From Schmidtea nova (taxonomy: Eukaryota), in contig CM097884.1 of assembly GCA_044892505.1 (NCBI GenBank), positions 125,989,873-126,048,000 of the forward strand: a stretch of DNA of 58,128 bases. The letters run 5' to 3'. Every line of letters begins with the position of its first letter. The stretch's first letter is position 1. The position numbers and the translations under genes are program-made. This document shows positions 30,450-58,128 of this stretch, piece by piece. The notes below the pieces were generated by a model. The model saw nothing but the letters and a program-made list of their open reading frames with translations. It was not told where the DNA came from and did not search any database.

Positions 30450-30651
30450 TTTCCGTCATACTAAATAACAAACCCAATTTATAATGCATCAAACATGTTA
30501 CCAAGATTAATATTATCCGTCGAAGGTAAAAAATCACATGATTAAATAAATAGAAATAATTTTAACTAAGGAAAATCAAAAAAAAAAAACACGGATCAAC
30601 ACCATTTAATTTATTGAAATCATTTAGTTTATAAAAATGTGAATATAATGT

Positions 30652-31152
30652 TTAGTGGAAAACACTTCGCTTGAGGCCGTGAACGGGAGTAATATGCAAC
30701 CCGTGATTGACTGGATTTCTTCGGATGTGAGCCATCGAACAGTTTAGTTTGGGGCGTCCATGGCACGTTTTCGGTAGGTGATTCGGAATCAATCCGAATT
30801 TAAGCAACTTGAGCGGTGAGACATATCCCCAATAGATCACTGTCGTTGGATTTCCTTCGCTGTCTGACACCACTATGACGAACAGAGCTGTCGTCTCCCG
30901 GTCTCTTTCGTCCTGAATTTCCCATCCGGGGCCTCCTCGATATACGATGGTATCCAATCCCCCGGTCCAAATTGAGAATGGACATTTCTTTCCTAGTTCC
31001 CACCGCCATTTATACATCAACGCATTTAGCGTTCTGAGGAGTTCCTGTGGGAGCGACTTCAATTTCTGCTGTTGCGTCCGGATTAGAGGATTTTCGACCC
31101 GTGCCGCCTGACGTTGAGTTGTTAGAAATTTATCCAGTATCGTTGCTTTCAT
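30652..31152 (-). CDS. LTR-encoded ORF A, 3' LTR copy: 166-aa unknown protein
   Basis: Open 166-codon frame with higher GC than its flanks; the ATG directly follows tttttttttatcag|. Confidence 0.5.
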   Translation of the reverse strand: MKATILDKFLTTQRQAARVENPLIRTQQQKLKSLPQELLRTLNALMYKWRWELGKKCPFSIWTGGLDTIVYRGGPGWEIQDERDRETTALFVIVVSDSEGNPTTVIYWGYVSPLKLLKFGLIPNHLPKTCHGRPKLNCSMAHIRRNPVNHGLHITPVHGLKRSVFH

Positions 31153-32033
31153 CTGATAAAAAAAAATATAATGCTAATAAATTTTATTGTGACGAATCCG
31201 TAAATTTTGGTGGGACCTGATAAAAATGCTCTGCTCGTTGATCAATAACACAAAAAAATGTGAAAAGGAGGAATAAAAAAAATATTTTCCAAACTAGTCA
31301 ATTAACACCGTCGCTATGTACAGCGATCGGAATATTAAAATTTTACATATTGTTACCTGCGCTATGTACAGCGATCAGGTTACGATTTTACTTGTTTAAT
31401 CCGTAATGTCGATCCGAACATGTCGTTATTTATGTCTAAATTAAACCATAGTTGAAACATCGAAATCGTCTCGGTGTGTCCGGACATTATTTCGATTAGT
31501 TATGTTGATTCACAAAAATTCGCGTGTAGATGGAAAAAAAAATCGATCTAGTCGACCTGATAATTGATATTGTAGTTTGTTTTCGCCTATCTGATCGAAT
31601 ATTAATGTTAACCACTGTCTACAAAGTGTCCTTGTCCCTGCACAACTTTACCGTACCGTGAAACTTTCAAAACCAAAAATTTAAATCAAATAAAGAATAC
31701 CCATAAAAACTCTGCTCACCATCTTGTGGAACGGTGAAATCCCACATTTACGGCGTACTCCCTCGCAGCGTGAGCTACTGAGGAAGTGAATATATATGCA
31801 TAAGTAAAATAAATGAAATAATAAAATCATCAGAATCATTTACGATAAGTTATATTAAATAAAATCATAGGATCAATAAAACTTATAATGACAATCAAAA
31901 TAATTACTTCCACAGGTTTTCCAGATAGCTTTGAATAAATCGTAAAATAAACGCTTTCACAAAGTTCGTGAATTAATGTTTCTAGACAAAGTCTGTCGAC
32001 AAAATTAGTGTTGTGTTGTTATTTTCGGATCGG

Positions 32034-32075
32034 TATTTATACTGATCCAGTTGGTCAGATTGACCAATCAGGATC
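32034..32075 (-). promoter_or_regulatory. Candidate LTR core promoter: palindromic CCAAT element followed by a TATA box
   Basis: Near-palindrome GATCCAGTTGGTCAGATTGACCAATCAGGATC (32044-32075), then TATAAATA on the minus strand at 32041-32034. An Inr-like CTAATTT lies near 32006. Confidence 0.5.
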
Positions 32076-32636
32076 AGGCCGTCCATCAAAGTAATTTTGT
32101 TATTTTATTTTAATATAAACCATTTTAAATTTCCGGTTCAGATTTCTCGCTGGGTGGTCTCGATTTTTTCAAGTAATTAACCAATTAATTGTACTTTTAT
32201 TTGATTTTATTTATAATTTTCTTATTTCAGACCCCCATACTGCTCGTTCCCGTGTCAATTTGATTTTCTTCCTTTGCTGGAAATTTAGTAATTATTATTT
32301 ATTATTTTATTTTAATTTTTAATTTAGGTTTTTCGAATGTTTTTGTGGTTATTATTTGTATCTATTGTTTGAATTAATACAATATCTTTGCCTTTTTAGA
32401 CCAATTGGTGGGCCCAACATCACTCGGGGACCCCTAAAATTGCGTCCCGCAATTAATTATACATAACTACTTATAACATCATACATAAAAAGTTTTACAG
32501 ATATATACATAAACACAAGAAAATCACTTAAGGTGATAGAATTTATACACATCATGAGATTTGTTATAGGATAGTTGAATATTATCAGATTATTGTCATA
32601 GGATAGTCAAAGGTTCATCAGAGATGTTCACAAAGT

Positions 32637-39400: not shown

Positions 39401-42400
39401 ACTCTTGCTTCAGGCCTCTCTATTGTAATTCGTAGGGTTGGTGTTGTTTGCTTATCTGTTGCCTGGGGTTTTTTGTTTTCTGTTCCCTGTGTCTCTGTCC
39501 TTCCACATTTTCCGATGATGTAATCTCCTTTGGGTGACTGTTGTATTGTCATGGCTGCTTTAGGTGTTTGGTATTTTGCACATGCGATTGTGTTGTGTGA
39601 TCTTGGATGCTTTTGTTTTCTAACGGTGCATATTTTGTACCAGGTATTTAGATCCAGGTCGTTGATCTCTATGATTTCTTGCTCGTGTTTTGAGATTCTG
39701 CAATCCATCGGGCTATTTTGTTCCGTGATTTTGTCCTTTTTTGACCAACATACTCGTTCGATTCCTTTTGCGTTTTTTATTTGTATTATTGCCCTTTCTT
39801 CACATGTCATTCCTTGACTTGGATTAATTAACGTTATAATCATTGTTAGTAATAGTAATTCTGGTTTGAAGAATGGTTTTATGGTTGATTTATAACCTGT
39901 TCTTTGGGTGTCATTTTTATCTCCTTGGTCGTTTGTTCCTTGTTCTCTCTCTTCATCTCTTTGTTTTTCTTCTTCACCTTTCTTTTCTTCCTTGTCTCGT
40001 TTCTTGTCTTTTCTCTCGTTTTCCTCTTTATCGGGTGGTTCGTGATCGCTTGAATTTTCTGAGTTGTTACCGTCGTCACTATCTGTGTTGTCATCTCCCC
40101 CTGGCTCGTCGAAAATGTCGTCCTCGACATTGATTTCTTCTATCAATTTTGCGTATGCTAATGTCGTTAGATTACTTGCCTCAAATTCTTGTGTTTCTAT
40201 CTGCTCCGGTATTATTTTGTTAGTGGATTTATATTCTAAGATTTCCCTTTTGGCCTTGATCCAATTGTTGATGTATGTCTTCATTAATTCTTTCCATTTG
40301 CCTGTGTATTTTCCCTCTCTCGGGTTGTTTGTGACTCTTAGATCCTTTCTTTCCATAAACATCTTCAATATCTCTGGCCATTTATATGTTATTAGGGCAC
40401 TTCTTATACACCAGTTTTGGTTATGTTCTGTAAACTCATTAATCTTGAATGCTGGTTCGTTGGTATTCGGATTTATCCACGTAAGTATTGATTCTGTTAG
40501 TTCGACGTTGTTCATCATTGCTAGTACACTGGGTTTCCTGACCGTATCAGTTAGGTAATCTATTTCTTCCTGATTTGAGATTGTTTTAATGAAGTTGACC
40601 ATTTCCCAATTATGTGTTAGTAATGCTACATCCAAAATTGAATTATCTTTATCTGTCTTTCCTGTAAGTCCTGCACCTGCTTTGTATAGTTCTTTTAATA
40701 CCTTTGTTTTCGTTTTGGCCCTTGCTGCAAATACCATAAGTGTATCTCCTTTCTCGTCTACCATATTCATATTGCTTCCGCAATTTAGCATTACTCTTGC
40801 AATTTCCATTACTTTTCTATCTTTGCCATTTCGTAGAGCTCTGTGTATGGGCATTATTCCGTCCTTTGGTAGTAAAAATGTTACTGGCATCTCCTTTTTT
40901 ATAGTTGTTATGTCGTTACCATTGTATGTTCCTTTTGCGTATGCGTGTACTTTTTCAACTAATGCACCGAGTATTTCCAGTGCATGTTTACTATTCTCAA
41001 ATTCCGGTAACAATTCTTTTGCTTTTTCTTGTATCGCATCTAGTCTAGCTTGGTATGGTGCTTCTGCTTTGAAGAGTGGTGTGAGTTTCTTGTTGCTTTC
41101 TCTTTCTTTTTTCTCTAAAACCTGTTTGCATTTTTCGGGATGGTTTAAAATTTTTACTAATTCCTCATATTCGCTTACTATTGTCTGGTATTTCTCGTTA
41201 AAATTGTTTATGTCTTTGTATGTTATTAGTTTGTCAAGTGGTTTCGCACACCATTTCCTAATCTTGTTGAATAAGGCTTCCTTCTCTTTATCGAATTTGT
41301 ATTCTTCTTCATTCTTTGTGATGTTTATGTTTCCTCTATCTAATAAGGTTAGTAATGTCTTCTGATCACAAGTAAATTTCAAAAGGTATCTTAACAGTGC
41401 GTTTTGTCCTTCGCTGTATACTTCGTTTATGTCTAAGACCCATGTATCATCTTCTGGTCGTTTCCATTTGATTAACTTACGGATCGTGTTGCATTTACCA
41501 ATTTTGATGGCCTCTTTGATAATGTCTCCTTTAACTAGTTCGTCTATCTCCCAAGTGGAGTTAGCTATTATGTATTTCAGCATTGGTTGGTGAGAACTCC
41601 ATATTACGTGATTTAGCACTGTTTTATCTTCTCTATCTCGTTCTGTCCAACTGAAACGGGCTTTTATCAGCAGATCTACCATTTCTTTATCCGCTTGGTA
41701 GATTGCTGCTGTCATTAATGGAGTTTCTTGTTCACGATTCCCCACGTCCAAGTTTTGGTTTGTTTCCTTTGCGATTTTTAGGAATTCTTTTGCTCTTTCA
41801 ATGTTTTTACACTGAATCGCATTATGTAAGGCTGGTTGTCCTCCTACATCTTTTAATAAGAGTATTTCAGGGATTTTTATCAATAATTCAGAAATAATTG
41901 GTTCGGTTGGTAATCCTTGTGCGTAACGGCTAATTATGTGTCTAATGTCCCTTGATATGCCTGCTTCGTCTCTAACATGCCATCTTCCCATTATCTCTCT
42001 CGCCTTCAATAGGATTTCTTTATTTCTGATTTCTTTTTGCCTTATTTCTGTTTTGTCGTCTTCGCTGGTGTTTGCTCTGAGCATGTTTATCCTGGCTGTT
42101 TGTGATCTGGTTATTATTCGATTCTCTGGTGTTGTAGTTATCGTTTTAGGCACCTTCTTACATCTGCAGGTGTTTACATATATGGGTCGTATTAACGGTC
42201 GATTTATTAGCTTAACTTTGACATTGTTGTCCTTTTTGTATATAATTTCATAAGGTCCTCTTCCAGGTCTTTGGAGTTTCTTAACAGTTCCTGGTATTAT
42301 TTCGGGAGTTTCTATTATCACCCAATCTCCTGGTTTTAGGTCGTTCGCTTTAACATTTTTCTTCTGGTCGTGTAAATCCTTATAACTTTCCTGATAAAAT

Positions 42401-45400
42401 TTAATGTTGAGTTCTGCCGTTTTCCATATTTCCTGCATCCTTTCTTTGAATTTGGTTACGTAGTCGTCGTCTTCCATATATTGCGATAATGGTGGCTGGT
42501 ACTCCAAATCTATGGGCATGTTGCATTCTCTGCCATACATAAGTTGAAACGGGCTTAGTTTTGTTGCGGCATGTATCGACATTCGGTATGCCATTAAACA
42601 TAATTTTATGTATTCATCCCAGTCAGTTTGGTGTCTGCTGACGTAATTTGATAACATTCTAATCAATGTGCCGTTGAATCGCTCCGTTTGTCCATTCGTT
42701 TGCGGGTGATATGGTGAAGTTCTCAATTTCGCTATTCTGAAATAGTTCGTCACCTCGTTTAATAACTCACTCATAAAATTAGTTCCTTGGTCTGTGAGTA
42801 TTTGTTTTGGAGTTCCATATCTGCAGCATATTTCTTCCACTAGAATTTTTGCTACGGTTTTTGCTTTTTGATCTTGCATGGCAAATGCTTCCGGGAATTT
42901 CGTCAGGTAATCCGTTATTACCAGTATGTAAATGTTTCCGTTTAAGCTTTCTGGTAATGGTCCTATTACGTCCATTGCTATAGTTGTCATTGGCTCTGCT
43001 GGTATCGGCATTGGTTGTAGCGGGTTCTTCCATTTCTTCCCACTATCCTTTCTAGTTGCGCAAGTTAGACAATTTTTAATCCATTCTTTTATATCTTCTT
43101 CCATTGTTCGCCAATAATATTTTTGTCTCATCCGATTTATTGTCTTTTTCTCTGACATATGACCTCCTAATTTCCCATCATGGTACTGGATCATTATCTC
43201 TTTCCTTCTGTTTTCCGGTAAACACATCAATCTCTTTTCTCCGTTTTGTATTAACAACCATCCTTTATTTATTATGTAGCGATGTTGATATTTTCCTATA
43301 TGTTCCTTTAGTTCCTTATTATCCTTGAATACCTCCATGTTTCGAGATGTTAGGAACTCTATGATCTGTCCCAATTCTTTGTCTTCCTGTTGATCTTTCT
43401 TTAACTCACTAAAGTCCAAATCTTCCGCTATTAACACACAAATTCGTTGTACATCAGGATCGGTTAATTCCGGAAATGTCAGTCTTGACATACAATCTGC
43501 ATTCGCATTCGCTTTTCCTGATTTAAATTTTATGTCCGGTGAGTACTCCTGTAACTGCATTGCCCATCGCATTAATCTACTGGATGTTTCCTTATGTTGT
43601 CCTAACCACACAAGCGGTTGGTGATCTGTGGTTATACAGATGATGTGTCCCCATAATAAATATTTAAAGTGTTTAATTGCTAGTATAATTGCTAACGCTT
43701 CTCGCTCGGTTACTGAGTAATTTTTCTCATGCTTTTTGAATGTCCGGCTATAATATCCGATTACACGTTCTTTTCCTTCATCGTCGTATTGTCCTAATAC
43801 TGCTCCTGCTGCATATCCGCTTGCATCCGTTGCAAGTAGGAATGGCTTCTTGAAGTCTGGGTGTACCAATATGGGTGCGGTTATCAGTTTATCTCTCAAT
43901 GTTTCAAAGGCTGTTTGCTGTTCATCTCCCCATATGAATGATACATCTTTCTTTACCAGCTCCTGTATAGGTTTTGCAATTCCGGCGTAATCTTTTATAA
44001 ACTTTCTATAATATCCACATAATCCAAGAAATTCTTGTATCTGGGTTATTGTTTTTGGTACTGGACATTCCTTTACTTTGTCGATATTTCTAGGATCCGG
44101 TTCTTTTCCTTTTGCTGACACTATATGTCCTAAAAATGTTACTTTCTCTTTCGCCCAATCACACTTGGATGGCTTGAGTTTTAACTTCCATTGTCTAAGT
44201 CTAACGAATACATCTCGAATATCCTGTATGTGTTGTTCAAACGTGCTAGAGTAGATTAATAAGTCGTCGATGTAGACCATACACTGCTTTATTCCATGGG
44301 TGACAAAATTCATGCATCTCTGAAATGATGCTGGTGCGTTTGTTAATCCAAAGGGCATCTTTCGAAATTGATATAGGTCTCTACCGATGGTAAAGGCAGT
44401 TTTCTCTTTATCTTCTTCCTTCATTTTTATTTGCCAGTATCCGCTTTTCAGATCTAGTGATGTAAAATATGCTGCTCCCTGTAATGTTAGTAGCATTTCG
44501 TTGATGTCTGGTAATGGGTAAGTATCTCGTTTTGTCACTGTATTCAATCTTCGATAATCTATGCAGAATCTCTGTGTTCCGTCTTTCTTCTTTACCATTA
44601 CTACTGGAAATTGCCAGGGTGAACAACTTGGTTCGATTACTTCTGCATCCAACATTTTCTTCACTTCTGCTTCTGCTACTGCTTTCTGTGCTTCCGCTAA
44701 TTTGTACGGCCTTAATGCAATTGGTGTTTCATCTGTTAATGGTATTGTATGTAGTGTGACATCACATGTTCCTAGATCCAAATCGGATGCTGCAAATATA
44801 TCCTTATACTCTATCAGGAGTTTTTCTAGCTGCTTCCTTTGATCCTCATTTAATAATTCACTGTCGATATTCCAGGTTGGTTCTTTATCTTTCTCTGCCC
44901 CTGCTATTGGTAGTTCGATATCCATCATTGGGGTTAATTTACCTAATCTTTCGTTTTCGTAGATTATTTTATCCTCTTCGTCGAAATTTACCACGTTTAT
45001 TGGGATTTCTCCATTATCATTTATGTTGACTAATCCTCTTGCCATTGGCAACGCTTTTCTTTTCTCGAATCTCTTACTTGGTTCGAAAATCATATCGCCT
45101 TGGATTGTCGGATCTATTTTTACGTAACATATTTTTTCCTTTCTTGCCGGTATTATCATTTGCTTTGAACTTGTCACTTTGGCTTCTATTGCGCATATTT
45201 GTCCTGTGCGATCCTTTAGTCTCATTGTTCCGAGGTCGATTACAATCTCTTTAAATAGTGCTGGCATCAAATCTGTTCCGATAATGCAAGGTACGCTTAA
45301 TGCTGGTATGACAGCTACGTACGTATCGATTTCCGTATTTAAGTGGCGTATTTTTACCCACCATCTTCCTGCTACTTCCACAACTTCTTTGCTACATGCA

Positions 45401-48400
45401 ATTACATGGACGTTTGTCCTTTCTATATCTCGTCTTTGCTCTTGTGGTATCCATTTGATGTCGATGGCGGAAATGTTTGCTCCAGTGTCGATCATTGCTT
45501 CGATTTCTCTTCCGTTAATTTCTATTGTCGTGGTTAGTACTGGGCCTGTGTTTGATGACATTACTGCGATCGTATGTGCGTCTCCTTGTGGATCTACACT
45601 TCTACATCTTCTCATTTTATAATCTTCTGGTATCATGGGGTATACATTTGTCATTGGCAACATTTGCATCGTGCTATTTTTTCCTCCTTGTAGTGGTTCT
45701 TGATACATTGTTGGCGGAGGTGCGTAACATTTCCATGCGTCGGCTGGATTCTTTTCGATGTATCGTGGTGCTTGGTTCTTGTACACTTGTCCTCCCTTAT
45801 AGTCGTCGTCGTCATCATCGTCGTCACTCGAATCATTTTGGGTTTTATATCCTTTCACCCTCTCCCATAAACCTTTTCTTTCTCTCTTGAGCTGTTGTCT
45901 TGCTTGTTCGTCATTCATTATCTTTTTAAATTTTCGTCCTACTTCTTCATCTGTTCCCTTCATTTTTGCTAGTATCTTTAGGAGTCTTTTTATTCGATGG
46001 ATATCTTTTGAGTGTCCATGCAACACCATTGTTTTCGCAAGGAATGGTAAAAACCCTACTATCATTTTCCAATTCACTTTCTTTTCTCTCTTGTATATAT
46101 CGAAACACGCTAACATTTGCGTTATTATTACTCTGACGATTTGGATTATTAATATGACCCCCAGTATTCCCGCCATCATTTGTCCAAATATCAGGAATCT
46201 TCCCCACATTGCTTTCATCATATTTTCTGTGGCTTTCTTGAAATGTGCTGGTGACAACAACAGTTCATAATTCGGTCCTTCTCGATAATCCGTTCCTCCC
46301 GTTATTGTTACGATATTTGATAGTAATGCTTCTCTTCTCGCTGGAAATAATATATTCTGCCTTGCTGCTTCTAAATCCTTTGGACTATATATTCCGTTAT
46401 TTGAGACATCCACGTCGCTGAATTGCCTATCCTTTGACAACTGCATTAGCTCGAATTCTCTTGGTGCTATCACTTCGGATCTTCCTGGGAACATAACCCA
46501 TTTACCATCTGGTTTCTGATAAAGTGGTCCATACGCATTACTACAGTTGAATGGATTTGGTTCAAACCCTGGTGGATTGATGATTCTCGTCACTGGTTGA
46601 ACGTATCGTACTTTTCCTTTGTAGTCGATTTCTAACTCGTTTGTACAGGTTCCAGGTTTCAACTGTGTTGTTGCTGCTAACGATGCGTGTGTCTTTTCAC
46701 AAATGTATACATACATTGCTTCTCCAACCACTCTTCCGAAATGTCCTTCTCTCAGTGGTAATAATGGCATCGCACTATCTGGATTCGTAATTGCTACGGC
46801 CAACTTTGTCTTTAATATTTCTCGATTCAGTATACAATCATTGTTTATCAGATCGTAGTACACTTTTTGTAATGAGGCTTGTCCTCTATGGAATAGGAAA
46901 TCCATTTTATTATTCACATATAGGTGTAGTTTGATATCCATTGTGTCGATTTTGGGTTTCGCATTTGGCACTTCTTGTTTTGACACATATATTCCTGGAT
47001 AATTCGTTTCGTATACCGTTGTACTACACTTAAGGGTTGCTTTCCCTTTTATGAACCTCATTCCTACATCCTGATTTGTGGTTATCAACACTGTTGGTGT
47101 GGCTCTCATCTCTATCCGTCTTTCTCTATGATCTGGTTTCAGTTGTCTTTTATTCTCTAAAGCTTCCTTGAGATGCTTTGCTCTAGCTTTGTCGTCATCG
47201 TCTTCTTCCTGGAACGTTTTTCCTTGGATTTCGTCGAACTTTGCTCCTTGTAGCAGTTGTAATTGACATTCGTTCACCTTTGGTTTGTACACTAATGTTG
47301 ACATTCCCGTTTGACACATGCTCCTGTCGATTTTACACATGGATAACGTTTTCATTTCTCCCGTTGTGGGTTCGAAGAATGCTTCGTAGCTTTTTAGTTC
47401 GACTATATACGTATCCATCACCACTAAGTTGGTTGCGAGTGTTCTTAACATCGGGTACGTTTCTCCTTGACAATATCCTTCTCCTCCCGTAATCCGTCCT
47501 GCTACATAGTACGTCTGTTGCATCATCATTCCTGGCTTTCCTTTTATCTTGATTTTATCTCTTGTTGTTACTTCTCCATGTTTAAACAATGCTTCGCAGT
47601 CCTCTCCTTGTAACACGATTGGTTCTCTTTCCGTTCCTGGCATGACAATTGCTGAATAATGTCCTCTCCCGCAGTAGAATGCGAATCTCGTCTTCTGCAC
47701 CTTACATTCATTTACCATTGTCTTTATGAGTTCTGCTTCTTGATACACGTGGTACCATTGTTCCTTTTTAATCTTTTGCAACTCTACTGGAGTTGCATCT
47801 TTGCATTGCTCCGTGCCTCTCAATGAATACTTTTCTCCTAACTTCATTTGGTCGCAATCAAACACTTCGAACGCTGTTGCGCTATCGGTGCTAATCATCC
47901 ATATCAACATCATCATTATTATAGAACTCAAATTCATTGATGACTTCGCGTTTCTTGTTCCTGCTTGTTCTTTTCCTAACTCTTCCAATATTTTTTCGAA
48001 TTTCTTTTTCATATTCTTGGCTTGTGTTTTCTTCTGGTTAGTTTTTATAAATGTTTCCCATCCTCCTTTGTTAATGACGTAGGGTTCTATTTCTCTAGCT
48101 ATAATCTTTGCGGTAATTTTTATATGTCTCTCTAATGCAGTGGGTTTTGGTCGACCTCTACTCAGTGTCAACAGATTGTAGATCGTGTATGCAATAGCTA
48201 TTACGTATTTGTTATCTGTTTCCGCTCCTTCTGTCAATTTCTTTATTAACATAGTGGTTCCTTGCCAGTCTAAATGATTTGACTTCGTCTTTTCTTTTAT
48301 GAATTCCGGTAAGATGGGTGCAATTGCGCTGTGCAATGACTTCGCCTTTTCGCTTATCTCAGTTATACGCCAGTATTTTTTCAATTCCGGATCAATTATT

Positions 48401-51291
48401 GCCAATATTTCCATTATTGTTTTCGATATCCATTCCTCACCTTGACATATTGGTGTTGTCTCTTTTTCTTTTATCTCCGCGATTTTATTTAATTTCTTTA
48501 AACATACTTCCCATTGATCTTGTCTCTTTTCATCCTTATTTCTGATGACTACATTTGCCGGATCTGTCTTGGGTCTACCTCGAGGTCGTCTATCCATTCC
48601 TGTACCCGTTTCCACAAATCTTGTTGCTCGTCCTGTTTCTTCCGTGACATCTCTTGGTTCGTTAGCTCTTTCTTCTAACCATCTTTCCATTTCTTGGGTT
48701 AATTGTACATTTTCGACATTCGTCCCTCTCGCTTCGTCTTCTATCAAATCGTTTATTTCTTCTATTATTATTTCTTCTTCGACTTCTGTTTCTCCGGGGT
48801 TGGTTACTTGTATTGTCGTAGGTAATTCTTGTATTCTTTCGAAAATGTTATCGTCTTTTTCTTTTGTTAATTCGGTTAATTCTTCTATCATATCGTCGCT
48901 ATCCGTTAAAATTTCGTCCACGTCGTATGGTTGTGGTGGAGTCATTTCTCTATTCCCTCTGGGTGTTGTCTCAGATCGTCTTGAACTTGTCCCTGGTGTT
49001 AGTACTGATTTCATCGGGCTCGGCGTACTTATACTTCCGTGTGGTTTATGGTTTTCTTCTTTACGTTTCAATGGTTGACCTGCTATTGCTTCTACTGTCA
49101 AGGTATTCATGAGATCTAGTTGTGCTGGCGTTATTCCGATTTCCAAACTGTTATCTAATGATCGTCCTTGGTGTTGTAAATGGAATGGTGGTTCGTATCT
49201 CAATTTCTTTTTAATATCTCGAATTTTTTCTGCTATTCCTACCCACAATTCTTCCTTATCCTTGTTTGGATATATTATTCTTAAATGCACTTTTTGTGGA
49301 ATTTCCTGCGAGAATTCTTGATTTCTCCATTTCCTAATTACGTGGTCTAGTTGTTCCGGGCACCATTCGTTAACTCTTTTATATTCTGCGATTGCCTTTG
49401 CCACTTTACGCAAGCATGTTATATCTTCTCCATTAACCACGAAAAAATCTGCGAGACCTTTTATTATTTTTCTCTTACCGTGCGCATTAGTTTTTAATAT
49501 TTCGACAAATTCCTCCGTTTTTTGCTTTTCCTTTTCTAACCATATGGCCACTGTTTCTGGTCCATCTAGGTCTATTGGCGTAGCTTTCCTTGTCACCATG
49601 CAAACCCTTCTCATTTCTGGTTCGCAGTCGTCTTCCATTCCTCTTTCATATTCTTCTTCATATTCCCCTTCCTTTGGTACCCAACATTTTCCTTTCTCGT
49701 TCCATTGTTTTTCTACGGGTGTTCGTCTTCGTCTGTTGAGATTGAGTTCTTCTAATACATTTTCCCACTCTGGCCAAATTCGCCAATTCCGATAGATGTC
49801 TACTATTTGTTGTAATTTGCGCACAACTTCTTTCCGTCGTTCCCGTTCTCTTTTCTCATCTTTAGCAGTTTCTCTGGGTGTATCGTCCATTCTGATAACG
49901 TGGATGGTTTGGTGATTATCCCATATGCCGATTTTATATAGTCGTCTCTCATCGTGATCCCATAATACATGTTCGTTATATTGTATGATTATGTCGTCTT
50001 CCCATTCGTCTTCTGGTTCTCTTTGCACTAGTGTCTCGTTGATGACATTTATTAATTCTTTAATGGTGCAATCCGCTACTACTTCTATTTCTTTGGTGTC
50101 TTCATTAGGCAATTCCACTGAAATTTTTAGGTCTGTTATTTTCCCTTGTCTGAACATTGTTTTTCCCATTTTTGCGATTAATTTGTCGTGTGAGATTTGT
50201 GACCATCTCGTGTGACTTGTGTCACGTATGCACTCAATACATTGTTTCAATTTCTCGTATTCGCTTCTCATTAACTCCTTTCTATGTTTTTTGACTTGTG
50301 GTATGATTTGCTCTATCAGGGAATTTAGATTCTTTCGTAAGACTCGTTCTTTCTCGTATTCTAACCGAGGTTTTATTCTCCTTTCAAAGCACGTGTTTGC
50401 TTCCCTTGCAACTTCTTGTAGGTTCTCTTCTTCCTTCTCATCACATATTGATAACAGAGTTATTTCTCCTGGCCATATACCTGTTTCTACTAAGTGCGTT
50501 CTTTTCTTTACGAGTCTATTCTGCGAATAGATGAATTTGTTTTTGTATGAGCTCCCTAGTCTATCCTCTACCCATCTGTAGATATCGTCTGTAAATGGAG
50601 TTTTGATCCAGATTCTTGGTGTAGATGTATTTATTATTATTGAGATGGTGTAATTGAGGAGTGGTTCCTCTATTAATTTCCCTACGTATCGATTTAACAT
50701 GTCTACTTCCCGGTCTTGTAACCATTCTTTGTAGTTCATTTGTAATAATGCTTTCATGAATTTCCGATATTGTTTCTTGTCCATGAACTCTTCGTTATAT
50801 ATCACTTCTAGCGAGTTATCTAGTAATTTCTGGATTTCATCTACCTTTATCTGTGTAGGTTCTGAGGTCTTTATTACTTCTCTCTCTTTATTTTCGTCTT
50901 CGGATTCGTTTAATATGTCTCCTGCTAGGCTACTGATGTCGTTATCTTCTTCCTCATCGGAAAACTCTCTGGCGGTATTTCTTAACATATTAATATGTGC
51001 TATTTGGTTCGTTTCTCCTTGTATATTCTTCGTTGGTTCTGGTTCGTTTTTGTCAATCTCTGGTGTTTGTTCACTCTTGTCCTCTATTACTTCGACTTTT
51101 CTCATTTTCTTTTCCAACTCGTCTATCTCTTTCAAACGTCTTCTTATCATTTTTCCTTTAAATATTCGACTGATTCGGGTTTCGTGACGCACTGGTGGTG
51201 GAATTTCTTCTGATTCTATTTCTTTGATTCTCATCACATTTCTTTTTGTCTCTGTTACTCCCATGTTTTCCCATATATCCGTTAATTTCAA
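36403..51291 (-). CDS. pol: 4,962-aa polyprotein: UBL, Bcl-2-like, Env, PR-RT-RH-IN, ankyrin, two FN3-like membrane proteins
   Basis: Uninterrupted 14.9-kb frame. PR IDTGA (D at ~45488), RT LDLKSGY and YIDD (44263-44274), RH TDAS/ERE/TDH, IN HHCC plus D,D(35)E and GPY. The track start is TTG; the frame is continuous with gag except for one TAA. Confidence 0.97.
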   Translation of the reverse strand: MKLTDIWENMGVTETKRNVMRIKEIESEEIPPPVRHETRISRIFKGKMIRRRLKEIDELEKKMRKVEVIEDKSEQTPEIDKNEPEPTKNIQGETNQIAHINMLRNTAREFSDEEEDNDISSLAGDILNESEDENKEREVIKTSEPTQIKVDEIQKLLDNSLEVIYNEEFMDKKQYRKFMKALLQMNYKEWLQDREVDMLNRYVGKLIEEPLLNYTISIIINTSTPRIWIKTPFTDDIYRWVEDRLGSSYKNKFIYSQNRLVKKRTHLVETGIWPGEITLLSICDEKEEENLQEVAREANTCFERRIKPRLEYEKERVLRKNLNSLIEQIIPQVKKHRKELMRSEYEKLKQCIECIRDTSHTRWSQISHDKLIAKMGKTMFRQGKITDLKISVELPNEDTKEIEVVADCTIKELINVINETLVQREPEDEWEDDIIIQYNEHVLWDHDERRLYKIGIWDNHQTIHVIRMDDTPRETAKDEKRERERRKEVVRKLQQIVDIYRNWRIWPEWENVLEELNLNRRRRTPVEKQWNEKGKCWVPKEGEYEEEYERGMEDDCEPEMRRVCMVTRKATPIDLDGPETVAIWLEKEKQKTEEFVEILKTNAHGKRKIIKGLADFFVVNGEDITCLRKVAKAIAEYKRVNEWCPEQLDHVIRKWRNQEFSQEIPQKVHLRIIYPNKDKEELWVGIAEKIRDIKKKLRYEPPFHLQHQGRSLDNSLEIGITPAQLDLMNTLTVEAIAGQPLKRKEENHKPHGSISTPSPMKSVLTPGTSSRRSETTPRGNREMTPPQPYDVDEILTDSDDMIEELTELTKEKDDNIFERIQELPTTIQVTNPGETEVEEEIIIEEINDLIEDEARGTNVENVQLTQEMERWLEERANEPRDVTEETGRATRFVETGTGMDRRPRGRPKTDPANVVIRNKDEKRQDQWEVCLKKLNKIAEIKEKETTPICQGEEWISKTIMEILAIIDPELKKYWRITEISEKAKSLHSAIAPILPEFIKEKTKSNHLDWQGTTMLIKKLTEGAETDNKYVIAIAYTIYNLLTLSRGRPKPTALERHIKITAKIIAREIEPYVINKGGWETFIKTNQKKTQAKNMKKKFEKILEELGKEQAGTRNAKSSMNLSSIIMMMLIWMISTDSATAFEVFDCDQMKLGEKYSLRGTEQCKDATPVELQKIKKEQWYHVYQEAELIKTMVNECKVQKTRFAFYCGRGHYSAIVMPGTEREPIVLQGEDCEALFKHGEVTTRDKIKIKGKPGMMMQQTYYVAGRITGGEGYCQGETYPMLRTLATNLVVMDTYIVELKSYEAFFEPTTGEMKTLSMCKIDRSMCQTGMSTLVYKPKVNECQLQLLQGAKFDEIQGKTFQEEDDDDKARAKHLKEALENKRQLKPDHRERRIEMRATPTVLITTNQDVGMRFIKGKATLKCSTTVYETNYPGIYVSKQEVPNAKPKIDTMDIKLHLYVNNKMDFLFHRGQASLQKVYYDLINNDCILNREILKTKLAVAITNPDSAMPLLPLREGHFGRVVGEAMYVYICEKTHASLAATTQLKPGTCTNELEIDYKGKVRYVQPVTRIINPPGFEPNPFNCSNAYGPLYQKPDGKWVMFPGRSEVIAPREFELMQLSKDRQFSDVDVSNNGIYSPKDLEAARQNILFPARREALLSNIVTITGGTDYREGPNYELLLSPAHFKKATENMMKAMWGRFLIFGQMMAGILGVILIIQIVRVIITQMLACFDIYKREKKVNWKMIVGFLPFLAKTMVLHGHSKDIHRIKRLLKILAKMKGTDEEVGRKFKKIMNDEQARQQLKRERKGLWERVKGYKTQNDSSDDDDDDDDYKGGQVYKNQAPRYIEKNPADAWKCYAPPPTMYQEPLQGGKNSTMQMLPMTNVYPMIPEDYKMRRCRSVDPQGDAHTIAVMSSNTGPVLTTTIEINGREIEAMIDTGANISAIDIKWIPQEQRRDIERTNVHVIACSKEVVEVAGRWWVKIRHLNTEIDTYVAVIPALSVPCIIGTDLMPALFKEIVIDLGTMRLKDRTGQICAIEAKVTSSKQMIIPARKEKICYVKIDPTIQGDMIFEPSKRFEKRKALPMARGLVNINDNGEIPINVVNFDEEDKIIYENERLGKLTPMMDIELPIAGAEKDKEPTWNIDSELLNEDQRKQLEKLLIEYKDIFAASDLDLGTCDVTLHTIPLTDETPIALRPYKLAEAQKAVAEAEVKKMLDAEVIEPSCSPWQFPVVMVKKKDGTQRFCIDYRRLNTVTKRDTYPLPDINEMLLTLQGAAYFTSLDLKSGYWQIKMKEEDKEKTAFTIGRDLYQFRKMPFGLTNAPASFQRCMNFVTHGIKQCMVYIDDLLIYSSTFEQHIQDIRDVFVRLRQWKLKLKPSKCDWAKEKVTFLGHIVSAKGKEPDPRNIDKVKECPVPKTITQIQEFLGLCGYYRKFIKDYAGIAKPIQELVKKDVSFIWGDEQQTAFETLRDKLITAPILVHPDFKKPFLLATDASGYAAGAVLGQYDDEGKERVIGYYSRTFKKHEKNYSVTEREALAIILAIKHFKYLLWGHIICITTDHQPLVWLGQHKETSSRLMRWAMQLQEYSPDIKFKSGKANANADCMSRLTFPELTDPDVQRICVLIAEDLDFSELKKDQQEDKELGQIIEFLTSRNMEVFKDNKELKEHIGKYQHRYIINKGWLLIQNGEKRLMCLPENRRKEIMIQYHDGKLGGHMSEKKTINRMRQKYYWRTMEEDIKEWIKNCLTCATRKDSGKKWKNPLQPMPIPAEPMTTIAMDVIGPLPESLNGNIYILVITDYLTKFPEAFAMQDQKAKTVAKILVEEICCRYGTPKQILTDQGTNFMSELLNEVTNYFRIAKLRTSPYHPQTNGQTERFNGTLIRMLSNYVSRHQTDWDEYIKLCLMAYRMSIHAATKLSPFQLMYGRECNMPIDLEYQPPLSQYMEDDDYVTKFKERMQEIWKTAELNIKFYQESYKDLHDQKKNVKANDLKPGDWVIIETPEIIPGTVKKLQRPGRGPYEIIYKKDNNVKVKLINRPLIRPIYVNTCRCKKVPKTITTTPENRIITRSQTARINMLRANTSEDDKTEIRQKEIRNKEILLKAREIMGRWHVRDEAGISRDIRHIISRYAQGLPTEPIISELLIKIPEILLLKDVGGQPALHNAIQCKNIERAKEFLKIAKETNQNLDVGNREQETPLMTAAIYQADKEMVDLLIKARFSWTERDREDKTVLNHVIWSSHQPMLKYIIANSTWEIDELVKGDIIKEAIKIGKCNTIRKLIKWKRPEDDTWVLDINEVYSEGQNALLRYLLKFTCDQKTLLTLLDRGNINITKNEEEYKFDKEKEALFNKIRKWCAKPLDKLITYKDINNFNEKYQTIVSEYEELVKILNHPEKCKQVLEKKERESNKKLTPLFKAEAPYQARLDAIQEKAKELLPEFENSKHALEILGALVEKVHAYAKGTYNGNDITTIKKEMPVTFLLPKDGIMPIHRALRNGKDRKVMEIARVMLNCGSNMNMVDEKGDTLMVFAARAKTKTKVLKELYKAGAGLTGKTDKDNSILDVALLTHNWEMVNFIKTISNQEEIDYLTDTVRKPSVLAMMNNVELTESILTWINPNTNEPAFKINEFTEHNQNWCIRSALITYKWPEILKMFMERKDLRVTNNPREGKYTGKWKELMKTYINNWIKAKREILEYKSTNKIIPEQIETQEFEASNLTTLAYAKLIEEINVEDDIFDEPGGDDNTDSDDGNNSENSSDHEPPDKEENERKDKKRDKEEKKGEEEKQRDEEREQGTNDQGDKNDTQRTGYKSTIKPFFKPELLLLTMIITLINPSQGMTCEERAIIQIKNAKGIERVCWSKKDKITEQNSPMDCRISKHEQEIIEINDLDLNTWYKICTVRKQKHPRSHNTIACAKYQTPKAAMTIQQSPKGDYIIGKCGRTETQGTENKKPQATDKQTTPTLRITIERPEARVATNETERVSYQMEVLCLALILIMIKRLEEGIEIETMTITEVEDTQNTNIKCWARNNEEIGVNEIRKSRKPTTNKVIKISEVKADKTYKLCLLEKETNKKGTTKCKTFQPGEVIKFRRRTRKRNKQIKRKVNITLEIKEIEPNVKGVCWRKYEKEVNKRTTPQCRTNTGTTTIQIKGLESKQTYEICLVKKNDQITINDLECGIYTTSSGTRTKTLTRKNKRKQRNKGKPKYTTTFKNNKQPTNQEVTTKPERKTSATLTLWKIENKTLEICWIIVQKHIRRQSRECRKTNKEIKIEKLQFNSEYEVCAIEIMDALRNQQERCETYYTPVNATSKGITRKLEFRELSQTNEQMDAEKIIIDPQAKWTPEEVIKEVKRKQEEREQLMRKLKGQYGIMFNQSKSIQTDENKQIKELIGLGILTATIPVIIALSAIWIRKINPRKSATQWPNIYNTSHGVEILEENAREEPKPTRNKKEAKIAKLGMNNKDKEIKEIKGEEKKYERRTRSLPQSSKWLGLTIILTLINGEEAINPQTGIKIINVQEVEKICWYREDEPIGENNPLKCIIRKSDQDIIRIEEMDGGTMHRICIIEKEKKSGLPKTVVCQKYETPRLEWYRVKPTKKEIKNTIDQPATQMKNTTDKPGEGERSTNNTREEVSPQQDFVCIALIIAMSKRIDKGIRIEQMAMTIRRKNQSNKICWVWYNEPREYQVQTSDESRTNKEIEIQEIQMNEEGSICIWEKGTQEDQPGIENCKTFQKGETLKFDEEELTKTERTLTLTGLDQTVKVICWTKHKPEVEEDNLTHCKEIKNKEKVELKKMEVNRTYAICTFTRKGSEKPECGLYQISEKLSQQTEPGGVENQTTKNDVKQLLNHHWSTQEVMNKVKSQIPKEKKPEAQTQNEIKANQNKRETNSGKTIIGLMSIGILIAYGILTTSIIVYWRYRKRNKATAIQWPDIKIMKLGIEIPEEIQKEFQRRTKGKEFWKQIEEEERYEEKTIMMV
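36538..39866 (-). other. Polyprotein C-terminus: two tandem signal peptide / FN3-like repeat / TM units
   Basis: Signal peptides at ~39811-39866 and ~37825-37863; TMs at ~38098-38163 and ~36587-36660. Seven modules follow C-W-x-C-x-I-x-I-xx-L-x4-Y-x-I-C-x-C-xx-Y/F. Both tails carry QWPxI. Confidence 0.7.
40430..41850 (-). other. Ankyrin-repeat region (two clusters) downstream of integrase
   Basis: GQPALHNAI, QETPLMTAA, DKTVLNHVI, GIMPIHRAL, GDTLMVFAA...LYKAGAGL. Confidence 0.88.
42170..45540 (-). other. pol: Pol core: protease ~45210-45540, RT ~44116-44740, RNase H ~43481-43850, integrase ~42170-43190
   Basis: All catalytic residues appear intact. The PR-RT-RH-IN order defines Ty3/gypsy. 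Confidence 0.97.
46020..47937 (-). other. env: Env: chuvirus/Monjiviricetes-like (class III-type) fusion glycoprotein embedded in the polyprotein
   Basis: Signal peptide MNLSSIIMMMLIWMISTDSATA then FEVFDC..YSL..C; NNDC.LN; G..GRVVGEAMY..IC; C.NEL..DY.G...VQP.TRII..C; GIYS..DL...ILFP; furin-type RERR (47116-47127); TM ~46102-46197. Confidence 0.8.
48040..48520 (-). other. Bcl-2-like domain
   Basis: BH2-like EPYVINKGGWETF (cf. WI..NGGW..F), preceded by a helical, degenerate BH1-like DNKYVIAIAY. Confidence 0.72.
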
Positions 51292-51450
51292 TTTTACTGA
51301 TGGTGCATCTCCTATTTGTAAGAACGCTTATCTGGGCAGTTTCGTTACTCCTGGAATCATCTGGTTTACTTTATTGAATAGTATTTCCACCTTTTCTTTT
51401 GCGTTATATTGGAATCGAAACATATGGTCGTTGGGCATGATTACCATCAT
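49084..51450 (-). other. Three ubiquitin-like (beta-grasp) domains at ~51220-51450, ~49888-50130 and ~49084-49290
   Basis: Each starts with a hydrophobic strand, x-P-N-x-D/H, a second strand, then T/K-I/V-x-x-L/I. The best example is LKISVELPNEDTKEIEVVADCTIKELINVI...LYKIGIWDNHQTIHVI. Confidence 0.6.
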
Positions 51451-53310
51451 TCCTTTTTTCCAAATTTTTCTTCTCTCTTCCTGGTTTATCTCAGTTTCCC
51501 CTTCCTTTTTTATTTCTTTTTCTACTTCTTCATCTTTTTGTACTATTTCTTTTAGACTTTCGTTGTTGGTTGGATTCGGATTTATTTCTAATGTGGTTTC
51601 TTTCTCGCGAGTGTCTGTTTGGTTTGTTGCTCTTAGCATGTTAATTCTTAGAGGTTGTCGCTCTCTTTCTTGCTGTTTTTGTTCATCCTCTCTTTGTATT
51701 CTTGCCCATTCCTGAGCGTGTCGTGCTTGACTTTCTCGATTCAATCGTTCATTTTCGCTTTCTATTTTTCTCATCATGCTAATTTGCTGTTGATTGGTTT
51801 GCGAATTTCCTCTCGTCGTATTGTTTATCAGTTCCGTCAACCTTTGAACTTCTTGCATCAAATGTATTTCTTTGGTGGTAGTTTTGTTCTGATTATTATT
51901 ATTGTTGTTTTGTTGGTTTCCATAATCTGGTCGGTTTACGGTATTTGCTTGATTTCCGTAATTTGGTCGGTTCCCATTACTCTGCCAGTTTCCTCGCTGA
52001 TTACTTTTTTGTCCGCAATTTCTTGAATAGTGACCAGGTCGTCCGCAATTAAAACAGATTATCGTAGAACATCTACTCTCCGAGTGTCCTTTAACTCCAC
52101 ATTTTCCGCAATTCAAATTTTGATAGCATTCTTGTTGCCAATGTCCCAATTTTCCACATGTTTTACATTGTTTTGTTTGTCCTTGAGGATTGTAATTGTT
52201 TTGGTTTCTAAAGTTTTGCACTTTATTTCCTTCGTTCCTTCGTTGAGGGGGTGGTCGGTTTAATTGTTGCGAATTTGGAATGTGATTGTTGAGATTTACT
52301 TCTGGTTCGATTTGCGCCGTGTCCATGGCTAAATAAATTCTACCCTCACTTCCTATCATGTGCAGTTCGAATCTGTTAGCTGTTTCTAGTGCTTGGTCTA
52401 GGGTTTTACATCCTTGGCATCCCACTTGTGCTCTTATGTCGGGTCTTCTTAGTCCTCCTATGAAGATAGCTGCCATTAACTCCTCGTTTATTGGACCTCC
52501 ATCCTTGAATACCGATTTTGCTAATTTTTTCAATTCGCTCGCGTATACCGCATTAGATTCGTTCATCTTTTGTTTCCTCATTGAAAATTCTATGAATGCT
52601 TCGCTTAGCACTTTATTTATTCCAAATGTTTGTTGGAAAAAGTCCTTTATCGCTGGCCAGTCTGCAGGTGGATTGGTACCGTTTTTTGCTTCCAAATATA
52701 GGTCCAATGCGCTATCTTTCAAATATAACTGTATTCTACTTGCTGTTGTCTCAGCTTTCCATTTGCATACTTCCACGAATATGCCAAATTCCTTTAGAAA
52801 AATTTCTAATTTACTCGCATCTCCGTTAAACGGTTCTCCTGAAAATTTATCCTTTATTTCTTCTCTTGGTTCACCCATTTCAATTCCGCTGTCTTGAGTT
52901 ATTTTACTTTCGTTTCCTCTTGTTTCTAGTTCGTTGTTATGTTCGTCTTCTGTTCCACTCGAGCTTGAATCGCTTTCAGTTTCTCTTATTACCACGTTAT
53001 CTGATATTATACTCTCGTTATCACTCTCGTTGGTTTCTACCTCTGGTTCTACCTCGTTTTCTACTTCTTCGATATTATCGTTGTTAGTTTCGTCGCTTTC
53101 TATTTCGCTTGTTTGGTTCTCCTTGGGTTCCGCTTGGTTCTCTTTGTTACTTGAGCTGTTGCTTACTACTGACAATTTATCGTTTTCGATAATTGATTTA
53201 TCTCTTATTATTTTCCTCGCTTTACTCCCTTGTGGGTTTTTGTGGTTATCTTTGCCGGCTTTCTGCTTTTTTGTTGGCTTTATTGCGACACTCTTTGCTC
53301 CTTTTCTCAA
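51328..53310 (-). CDS. gag: Gag: acidic N-terminal extension, capsid-like domain, three CCHC knuckles
   Basis: FNGDASKLEIFLKEF capsid start; CKTCGKLGHWQQEC, CGKCGVKGHSESRC and CFNCGRPGHYSRNC (52015-52167). The track start is TTG; the first ATG is ~143 codons in. Confidence 0.93.
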   Translation of the reverse strand: MRKGAKSVAIKPTKKQKAGKDNHKNPQGSKARKIIRDKSIIENDKLSVVSNSSSNKENQAEPKENQTSEIESDETNNDNIEEVENEVEPEVETNESDNESIISDNVVIRETESDSSSSGTEDEHNNELETRGNESKITQDSGIEMGEPREEIKDKFSGEPFNGDASKLEIFLKEFGIFVEVCKWKAETTASRIQLYLKDSALDLYLEAKNGTNPPADWPAIKDFFQQTFGINKVLSEAFIEFSMRKQKMNESNAVYASELKKLAKSVFKDGGPINEELMAAIFIGGLRRPDIRAQVGCQGCKTLDQALETANRFELHMIGSEGRIYLAMDTAQIEPEVNLNNHIPNSQQLNRPPPQRRNEGNKVQNFRNQNNYNPQGQTKQCKTCGKLGHWQQECYQNLNCGKCGVKGHSESRCSTIICFNCGRPGHYSRNCGQKSNQRGNWQSNGNRPNYGNQANTVNRPDYGNQQNNNNNNQNKTTTKEIHLMQEVQRLTELINNTTRGNSQTNQQQISMMRKIESENERLNRESQARHAQEWARIQREDEQKQQERERQPLRINMLRATNQTDTREKETTLEINPNPTNNESLKEIVQKDEEVEKEIKKEGETEINQEERRKIWKKGMMVIMPNDHMFRFQYNAKEKVEILFNKVNQMIPGVTKLPR

Positions 53311-53920
53311 CTGGATTACTTTTATATTATCAATTTTCTTGTCCTATCTATTATCGTTTTTCTGATTCTTCTTGTTGTTTGATTGATTTGATTGATTTGT
53401 ATATCTAAAATACAAAGGTCCTCAACGATACCTTATTGTTATCGTCGCGCTTTTATTCCCTTTCTTTCGGGATTACTTATTACTGGGTTTTCATTATTTC
53501 CCATTCTCAGATTCCCCTTTATTTTTAGTCTATTTAAATTATCTATAGACTGGTCACAATTATCTATTTATGTCGTAATAATTATCTATGTTTTATCAAA
53601 TCCATTACTTTTCCCACAGTTTCCCAATTTATTGGTCGCTCGAGCGCTCTAATTCCCTGAGTCTTTCTGACTCGTTTATCATTATTTTATCATCTTTATT
53701 CATTATTCCCTGCTAGCAATCGTTTTACTCATTCTGCCGGTTGTTCCGGTCAGCTCGAATTTTTATTATTCTCCTTGCATGCTTTACTTAAGGTTGCATA
53801 ATCAGCTTTACTCGCATTTCTTAACTACTAGTGCGCACTATTCTAAATCTCGTCGACGATTACACTATGGGTCTATATTCCCTCGGTTACTATTTATCCG
53901 GATATCTCTATAATCCACTA

Positions 53921-54200
53921 TGGCTCTTTTGGCCTCAATTTATATCTCACATGGCTCTATTGGCCTCATTTTACTATCTCAAACGGCTCTATTGGCCTCA
54001 ATTTAATATCTCACATGGCTCTATTGGCCTTAATTTAATATCTCACATGGCTCTATTGGCCTCAAATTAATCTCTCCATAACGCCTAGCTAGGTCATTCA
54101 ATAAGGCTCGTTGGCCTCAACCCTTTTTTTCAAGGGACAAACCGCTAATAACCCTTTGCTTCAAGGGACAACTCTAATAACCCTTTGTTTCAAGGGACAA
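53921..54200. repeat. Leader tandem repeats: five ~32-bp units plus a partial sixth, then three CCCTT-N6-AAGGG hairpins
   Basis: Units of atctcacatggctctattggcctcaattta at 53921-54070 and a core at 54105-54120; ccctt..ttcaagggacaa x3 at 54121-54200. Confidence 0.9.
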
Positions 54201-55520: not shown

Positions 55521-55961
55521 AATTTATGCTGGGTTCATGGACGGGTTGGTAAAGAGGCTAATGATGGCTAGGGATCTCCCATCCATGATCATGCATAAAA
55601 TGTCGTAAGTTACACTCGAGCGCCCTTGATTATTTCCCTTGATAACCAAGTTGGTGATGCGCAGGGTGATTAAACAATGAGGGGCAGGTGAGCACTATTG
55701 CTAGGACTACTCCCCCTTTATGTTTACGGGTTCACGCGGCCGTGGAAGGACTTACGCAATTATTGTTCTATTGTGTGTGTGATGTCATGTAATTATCAAA
55801 AACAAAATTTAAGCACAACGAAACTACTAATACGATAATACTTAAGCTACTCCTTTCGTTGTGTGACGGGTAATTTAAATTTAATTAAATGAATTAGGTA
55901 ATTGAAGGAAAACATCAGAAATAACAACAACAAAACAAAACGAGTAAAAATTTAATTGAGT

Positions 55962-56569
55962 TCAAATTCTGACATCGTATTTTATTTGTAATATAAATTC
56001 TTTGAATATTCCTTCAGGAGGGAACATCTCTGCTAACCACTCGGCTTCCGACATTTCTGCCATCGTGGTTACTTGTGTCCGCAATTGCTGGGAAAACAGC
56101 TTCCTTTGGCGACGGCGCTTGGAGCCGATTCGTTTTCGCTTATTCGGTTTTCCGGCGGGAGTTGGTGCAGTGGTGGTTTCCCCCCGACTCTGCGTCGTTG
56201 TTGCCTCGAGTCCATCGGTGTCTGTACTGATTGAGCAGGCCACTTTCCGTTCTCCTACCCAATTCTGGTAAGTAATGGGTCGGATTTGTGCTTTTAATTC
56301 GGACTCGATAAACGAAGTCGTCACCGAATGGAGGCATCGGCGCAACTCAATTTTTGTTGCTTCCCATTCGGTGCGATAATCGTCAGCTGTCCTTTGAGCC
56401 CTTTCTGTCCGACTCATCTGCTCCTTCATGCGAGCTGGTGCGAACCAGCTGGTCCGTAAATGCTGAATCTGAGCTTCTGCTTTGGCTCGTAAGGCTTTTT
56501 CTTGGTTTAGCTCCTTTTCCAATGCTCGGCGGGTTCTCCACGCCTTGTCCAATTCTCGCTGTTGGCTAG
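55962..56569 (-). CDS. LTR-encoded ORF B, 5' LTR copy
   Basis: Identical translation to the 3' LTR copy. Confidence 0.55.
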
Positions 56570-56769
56570 TTTCCGTCATACTAAATAACAAACCCAATTT
56601 ATAATGCATCAAACATGTTACCAAGATTAATATTATCCGTCGAAGGTAAAAAATCACATGATTAAATAAATAGAAATAATTTTAACTAAGGAAAATCAAA
56701 AAAAAAACACGGATCAACACCATTTAATTTATTGAAATCATTTAGTTTATAAAAATGTGAATATAATGT

Positions 56770-57270
56770 TTAGTGGAAAACACTTCGCTTGAGGCCGTGA
56801 ACGGGAGTAATATGCAACCCGTGATTGACTGGATTTCTTCGGATGTGAGCCATCGAACAGTTTAGTTTGGGGCGTCCATGGCACGTTTTCGGTAGGTGAT
56901 TCGGAATCAATCCGAATTTAAGCAACTTGAGCGGTGAGACATATCCCCAATGGATCACTGTCGTTGGATTTCCTTCGCTGTCTGACACCACTATGACGAA
57001 CAGAGCTGTCGTCTCCCGGTCTCTTTCGTCCTGAATTTCCCATCCGGGGCCTCCTCGATATACGATGGTATCCAATCCCCCGGTCCAAATTGAGAATGGA
57101 CATTTCTTTCCTAGTTCCCACCGCCATTTATACATCAACGCATTTAGCGTTCTGAGGAGTTCCTGTGGGAGCGACTTCAATTTCTGCTGTTGCGTCCGGA
57201 TTAGAGGATTTTCGACCCGTGCCGCCTGACGTTGAGTTGTTAGAAATTTATCCAGTATCGTTGCTTTCAT
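56770..57270 (-). CDS. LTR-encoded ORF A, 5' LTR copy
   Basis: One amino-acid difference from the 3' copy (VIHWG vs VIYWG). Confidence 0.5.
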   Translation of the reverse strand: MKATILDKFLTTQRQAARVENPLIRTQQQKLKSLPQELLRTLNALMYKWRWELGKKCPFSIWTGGLDTIVYRGGPGWEIQDERDRETTALFVIVVSDSEGNPTTVIHWGYVSPLKLLKFGLIPNHLPKTCHGRPKLNCSMAHIRRNPVNHGLHITPVHGLKRSVFH

Positions 57271-58128
57271 CTGATAAAAAAAAATATAATGCTAATAAAT
57301 TTTATTGTGACGAATCCGTAAATTTTGGTGGGACCTGATAAAAATGCTCTGCTCGTTGATCAATAACACAAAAAAAATGTGAAAAGGAGGAATAAAAAAA
57401 ATATTTTCCAAACTAGTCAATTAACACCGTCGCTATGTACAGCGATCGGAATATTAAAATTTTACATATTGTTACCTGCGCTATGTACAGCGATCAGGTT
57501 ACGATTTTACTTGTTTAATCCGTAATGTCGATCCGAACATGTCGTTATTTATGTCTAAATTAAACCATAGTTGAAACATCGAAATCGTCTCGGTGTGTCC
57601 GGACATTATTTCGATTAGTTATGTTGATTCACAAAAATTCGCGTGTAGATGGAAAAAAAAATCGATCTAGTCGACCTGATAATTGATATTGTAGTTTGTT
57701 TTCGCCTATCTGATCGAATATTAATGTTAACCACTGTCTACAAAGTGTCCTTGTCCCTGCACAACTTTACCGTACCGTGAAACTTTCAAAACCAAAAATT
57801 TAAATCAAATAAAGAATACCCATAAAAACTCTGCTCACCATCTTGTGGAACGGTGAAATCCCACATTTACGGCGTACTCCCTCGCAGCGTGAGCTACTGA
57901 GGAAGTGAATATATATGCATAAGTAAAATAAATGAAATAATAAAATCATCAGAATCATTTACGATAAGTTATATTAAATAAAATCATAGGATCAATAAAA
58001 CTTATAATGACAATCAAAATAATTACTTCCACAGGTTTTCCAGATAGCTTTGAATAAATCGTAAAATAAACGCTTTCACAAAGTTCGTGAATTAATGTTT
58101 CTAGACAAAGTCTGTCGACAAAATTAGT

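Follow-up and report, generated by a model that had tools for sequence, protein, structure and literature searches.

The window analysed here, a stretch of 58,128 nucleotides (nt) from Schmidtea nova (NCBI GenBank assembly GCA_044892505.1, contig CM097884.1, positions 125,989,873 to 126,048,000), carries on its minus strand a 29-kb gypsy element with long terminal repeats (LTRs), which, by its layout and in comparison with the published descriptions, is a Burro-type element. In this copy, the gag part is cut off from the remainder of a giant coding frame by a single in-frame TAA (51330-51328, minus strand). We show that this premature stop is private to the window copy and that, in the family, gag, env and pol share a single frame of about 5,650 codons. 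Most likely, the TAA is a chance nonsense mutation that disables this copy; the lesion is real but ordinary, and the element that carries it is of a known kind.

The interrupted frame

On the minus strand, the sequence at the site reads AAA CTG CCC AGA TAA GCG TTC TTA CAA, in agreement with a preliminary description of the window that was made from the sequence alone. The upstream (gag) frame (53343-51328, minus strand) comprises 671 amino acids from stop to stop, with the first ATG at codon 156 (position 52878), and the frame 3' of the TAA (51327-36403, minus strand) runs for 4,974 codons with no other stop. The two are in the same phase and, joined across the single intervening stop, amount to 5,646 codons; over these 16.9 kb, the window copy contains no frameshift and no stop other than the TAA. 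The preliminary description had proposed the same layout of two frames separated by one stop, and this stands, although its lengths of 4,962 and 5,635 amino acids fall 12 and 11 codons below the stop-to-stop values and match a count from a leucine TTG codon. It had also placed the stop at the end of gag, but the last zinc knuckle (which ends at residue 443) lies 228 codons before the TAA, and the protease is about 1,930 codons further downstream of it. An alternative genetic code was considered and rejected because the downstream frame itself terminates at TAA, and the other copies of the family simply have no stop at this site.

The stop codon in other copies of the family

In a DNA search of the same genome, the best 40 of 418 candidates were scored and 30 copies were fetched, namely, the window and 29 others; in a protein search for which the stop in the query was replaced by X, the best 150 of 579 candidates were scored, and the copy counts given here are lower bounds. 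An exact pattern consisting of the 9 bases on each side of the codon occurs at 121 places in the genome, only one of which, the window itself, contains a stop-type codon, and a longer pattern that includes the TAA has a single match. The preliminary description had suggested aligning this codon over the genomic copies and had favored a new nonsense mutation (or an error) in a single ancestral open reading frame (ORF); the absence of a stop from 120 of the 121 flank-matched places supports that reading. A sense codon is present at the site in all 29 nearest fetched copies, in all 20 more divergent copies (84-96% identical) and, altogether, in 52 of the 52 other copies that were aligned (29 + 20 + 3).

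Among the best 150 of the 579 protein matches, 146 have no stop across 134 codons around the site, and four contain one TAA. In the three non-window copies with a TAA in this region, the site itself is occupied by a sense codon: two of these stop at the equivalents of positions 51522 and 51372, and the third contains an indel and has no stop in the window's frame. An unbroken frame of at least 5,600 codons was found in 33 of the same 150 scored copies. A sister family, the second env-bearing giant family, which is about 30-35% identical in env and has four zinc knuckles, encompasses gag, a Bcl-2-like region and env in one frame, which runs from gag to env uninterrupted by a stop in all five copies fetched.

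These counts bear on the possibility, raised in the preliminary description, that programmed read-through of the UAA determines how much Gag is made relative to the Env-Pol extension, in the manner of UAG read-through in murine leukemia virus. In Moloney murine leukemia virus, a UAG gag terminator followed by a stimulatory 3' pseudoknot is the normal route to Gag-Pol (PMC5009743). The geometry in the window is similar and would suit read-through, with gag upstream and pol downstream in one phase and a single stop between them, and a single polyprotein by itself leaves the Gag:Pol ratio unexplained. However, the stop in the window is UAA rather than UAG, is present at only 1 of the 121 places and in none of the 52 aligned copies, has no counterpart in the sister family, and is located far from the protease, well past the last knuckle and within an evenly selected stretch. 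Nor was a stable structure found on its 3' side: the fold of the 3' context, which the preliminary description had proposed as a check, was no better than that of shuffled sequences at 80, 120 or 150 nt (z = -0.27, -0.06 and +0.17; 71, 98 and 105 of the 200 shuffles folded as well), with pseudoknots outside the model. As a mechanism of the family, programmed read-through is refuted by the copy counts, and we attach almost no probability to it as the explanation of this codon. A UAA read-through switch at this site is thereby removed as a false lead.

Origin of the stop codon

The explanation that we favor is that a chance nonsense change, private to one giant Burro-type gypsy copy, broke this copy, and that the change would have arisen either during the reverse transcription of this copy or after its recent insertion. 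The age of the insertion can be gauged from the LTRs. The 3' LTR (29407-32419, minus strand; 3,013 nt, with TG...CA ends) differs from the 5' LTR (55527-58128, minus strand; 3,012 nt in total, including 410 bases beyond the window end) by two mismatches and two gap events. Two mismatches in 3,011 positions translate into 3.3e-4 substitutions per site since insertion, and of the single-base changes that are possible in this frame, 6.0% create a stop; in 16.9 kb, the expectation is 5.6 substitutions and 0.34 nonsense changes, with a probability of at least one nonsense change of 0.28 (a rough estimate). Thus, even at the young age indicated by the LTRs, one stop is unsurprising. Stops private to one copy are frequent in the family: elsewhere within 3.4 kb, there are six in-frame stops in 5 of the 29 other copies, each seen once, and three frameshifting indels in 2 of the 29 copies, over about 98 kb. 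The window copy itself has four positions in 3,401 nt that are unseen in the 29 other copies, and 51330 is among them.

Purifying selection on the codons on either side of the site is similar. Over 49 copies, the ratio of nonsynonymous to synonymous polymorphism (pN/pS) in an 84-codon segment that includes the site is 0.27 before the site and 0.22 after it, which fits one continuous coding stretch.

A single-base assembly error, with the animal's own copy open at this codon, would also yield an allele that is unique among the 121 flank-matched places, and polishing can fail in a repeat such as this one, of which there are hundreds of near-identical copies. Long-read errors, however, are mostly indels, and the three frameshifting indels in the other copies bound such errors near 3e-5 per base. 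Error-made stops would then number at most about 0.03 per frame vs the 0.34 expected from mutation, a ratio that we infer to be approximately 10:1 in favor of mutation, and the remainder of the 16.9-kb frame has neither a frameshift nor a further stop. We therefore regard an assembly error as unlikely, albeit the most credible of the alternatives. A search for contigs at 100% likeness (assembled contigs from one study) found none that spans 51311-51340 in any of four runs. In the deepest run, the window-private site 50942 was likewise uncovered, so the contig gap at the stop is uninformative with respect to error or mutation, whereas the third such site in range, 51751, lies within a contig of depth 98 and, therefore, its allele is common to other copies.

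Several considerations weigh against the chance mutation. The exact-flank pattern overlooks copies with differing flanks; the LTR clock is set by two mismatches and assumes neutral, even rates; and mutation and assembly error are separated by rate arguments alone.

If the TAA is a chance mutation, translation of the window copy is predicted to yield at most Gag with a linker and one half of the adjoining domain, 516 amino acids from the first ATG. The copy would then make neither Env nor Pol and would be non-autonomous, but, given its near-identical LTRs, it could still be mobilised by the proteins of other copies. The long RNA 3' of the stop (about 20 kb) likely makes the transcript a target of nonsense-mediated decay.

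A truncated product of this kind could also have a function of its own: the window copy might be a natural Gag-only producer, the free Gag of which helps or blocks the remaining family, and the stop might have been retained for that reason, the copy acting as a helper or as a dominant-negative brake. The capsid part and the knuckles 5' of the stop are intact, the LTRs are nearly identical, and other retroelements are known to be restricted by truncated or Gag-only factors. Nevertheless, the copy is too young for selection to show, the 4,974 codons downstream have not decayed, a single stop is expected by chance, no daughter copy carries the same stop, and the transcript would likely be degraded by nonsense-mediated decay. 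Gag-only production with an effect on the family accordingly appears very improbable, and retention of the stop for that role even more so. If true, the Gag-only reading would show how single-ORF giant elements gain surplus Gag from broken copies.

Gag expression and the 5' extension of the gag frame

How surplus Gag is produced, and Pol brought into particles, from one polyprotein in which a membrane-anchored env separates gag from pol is a question for the family as a whole, not for this stop; a narrow literature search on the Gag:Pol stoichiometry of elements with a single ORF found nothing. A conserved ATG-free extension of the gag frame may bear on this question. In the window copy, the frame is open for 155 codons ahead of the first ATG (53343-52881, minus strand), and in all 19 aligned copies (20 were fetched, one of which was unaligned), there are 155-198 open codons with no upstream in-frame ATG. 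The large indels inside the extension are, singly or in sum, multiples of 3, and its pN/pS is 0.26-0.60, compared with 0.73 on the far side of the upstream stop and 0.04 downstream of the ATG. Possibly, the extension reflects a non-AUG start, a spliced leader or weakly constrained leader sequence. Further upstream, the leader contains a 32-nt tandem repeat in five copies (53907-54098).

Candidate ubiquitin-like segments

According to the preliminary description, the TAA splits a single ubiquitin-like, beta-grasp fold. A domain-sized segment across the stop (51214-51465, minus strand) has the stop at codon 46 of 84 and is possibly ubiquitin-like. In a model of this stretch from one of the other copies, the order of the elements (strand-strand-helix-strand-helix-helix-strand-strand) is compatible with a beta-grasp fold, but neither a fold match nor a sequence match was obtained for it. 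The model, built from a shallow alignment, is of low confidence, with a predicted local distance difference test score (pLDDT) of 49.5, and had no match in Foldseek at E 0.001 or in VIA, where the best value was Z 3.6; no ubiquitin-like entry was listed for this model or for that of the second segment below, which does not speak against such a fold. The segment had no Pfam or PDB sequence match, apart from FERM_N at E 0.13 in 1 of 20 other copies, and in a comparison of its profile with ubiquitin-like loci from the same genome, shuffled profiles did as well (22 of 40). A ubiquitin-like fold across the stop is nevertheless plausible because the published Burro layout includes a Ubi2/SUMO-like motif (PMC6431247). 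The split domain was the reason given in the preliminary description for favoring a new mutation; the verdict on the stop is independent of this claim.

A second candidate ubiquitin-like segment (49888-50148, minus strand) was pointed to by Atlas ubiquitin and Rad60-SLD clusters at 0.88-0.89, which is a lead only, and by Pfam Ubiquitin_4 at E 0.081; its model is poor (pLDDT 45.1) and had no Foldseek match. A third candidate (49087-49308, minus strand; pN/pS 0.11) was picked out by eye and had no Pfam support, and hhalign aligned it to the second segment with a probability of 0.9%. When the profiles of the three segments were compared with one another, with the sister family or with ubiquitin-like loci, the results remained at chance level. 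Homologues outside this genome were found neither among 432 candidates nor, with the 1,126 residues that follow the TAA as the query, among 1.84 billion representatives, and the alignments are therefore shallow (96-98% column identity).

In a separate Rad60-SLD search, many of the best 150 of 2,223 candidates had the same score and were located within long frames of varying length. Thus, a repeat present in high copy number appears to contain a ubiquitin-like unit, in addition to tandem 228-nt arrays of the polyubiquitin type.

Structure of the element and comparison with Burro

The element measures 29.1 kb, with one end at 29407 and the other 410 bases outside the window, and is flanked by a 4-base target duplication, ATAT. 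The gag part (51328-53343, minus strand; 671 codons) contains three CCHC-type knuckles starting at 52167, 52110 and 52056 (Pfam zf-CCHC, E 6.7e-9) and matches Retrotran_gag_2 at E 0.017, under the cut-off; in the capsid part, pN/pS is 0.06. An env-like fusion glycoprotein of the Monjiviricetes type, with its best stretch at 46090-47112 (minus strand; PF24664, E 2.3e-70), lies in frame between gag and the protease, the env-like match covering residues 1406-1746 and the protease residues 1933-2023, and is followed by a membrane anchor predicted from hydropathy near 46179. The protease, reverse transcriptase, RNase H and integrase come next, in the gypsy order (42703-45531, minus strand; Pfam RVP, RVT_1, RT_RNaseH, Integrase_H2C2 and rve), and after the integrase, there are two stretches of ankyrin repeats, the better of which is at 41560-41829 (minus strand; Ank_2, E 1.7e-12). 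An accessory ORF 3' of the polyprotein (35828-34449, minus strand) is TRAF-like, with a RING finger, TRAF zinc fingers and MATH_2 (E 8.4e-21) in Pfam.

Before env, a putative Bcl-2-like region (48001-48480, minus strand) is weakly supported by a joint profile of four sequences, which matched Bax at E 0.004 and Bcl-xL at E 0.017, ranked below two designed helical proteins. The window's own stretch had no Pfam match alone; it is 22% identical to the corresponding region of the sister family, which matches Pfam Bcl-2 at E 0.0036 (under the cut-off).

This layout is close to that of planarian Burro elements, which have one ORF of 4,873-5,140 amino acids with gag, a Ubi2/SUMO-like motif, a Bcl-2-like region, env in frame between gag and pol, and ankyrins (PMC6431247). 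The single gag-env-pol frame is, accordingly, a layout already published for Burro elements (PMC6431247). Shared with Burro / GYPSM1 are the size of about 30 kb, the long LTRs and the one very long ORF (at the family level, the window copy being interrupted once); the gag with CCHC knuckles, followed by a Bcl-2-like region (putative and weakly supported here) and then by env before the protease; the order of protease, reverse transcriptase, RNase H and integrase, then ankyrin repeats; and an accessory ORF that encodes a MATH/TRAF domain. The env of Burro / GYPSM1 matches mononegavirus fusion proteins, and its in-frame placement is common to both (PMC6431247).

There are also differences from that account (PMC6431247). 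The frame here is longer (5,646 codons vs the published 4,873 and 5,140 amino acids), the polyprotein has no BIR or dUTPase match in Pfam, and up to three candidate ubiquitin-like segments are present vs one reported for Burro. The TRAF-like accessory ORF is downstream of the polyprotein, whereas in the Dugesia tigrina element it is upstream. Unlike the published ORFs, the frame of the window copy is interrupted once. The same source mentions Burro copies in decay that contain stop codons and frameshifts (PMC6431247). BURRO1 is described as abundant and active, and silenced by PIWI (PMC8532177).

Other features of the element and its flanks

The last third of the polyprotein, past the ankyrin repeats (about 40500-36403, minus strand), had no Pfam match; it contains repeated cysteine- and strand-rich modules and at least two predicted membrane anchors (38160 and 36648). 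Between the 5' LTR and gag, an accessory frame (55221-54685, minus strand) contains a C3HC4 RING finger (E 4.1e-11). Two further accessory frames before the 3' LTR (34367-33276 and 33236-32637, minus strand) had no Pfam match above the cut-off and encode a likely coiled coil of 363 amino acids and a protein of 199 amino acids with hydrophobic stretches. Each LTR also contains open frames of 239 and 173 codons (56681-55962 and 57291-56770, minus strand, with copies at 30561-29842 and 31173-30652). No transfer RNA gene was found in the window. The AT-rich flank contains elements with long terminal inverted repeats, resembling miniature inverted-repeat transposable elements, at 3226-3683, 16325-17572, 20152-21182 and 22548-23996.

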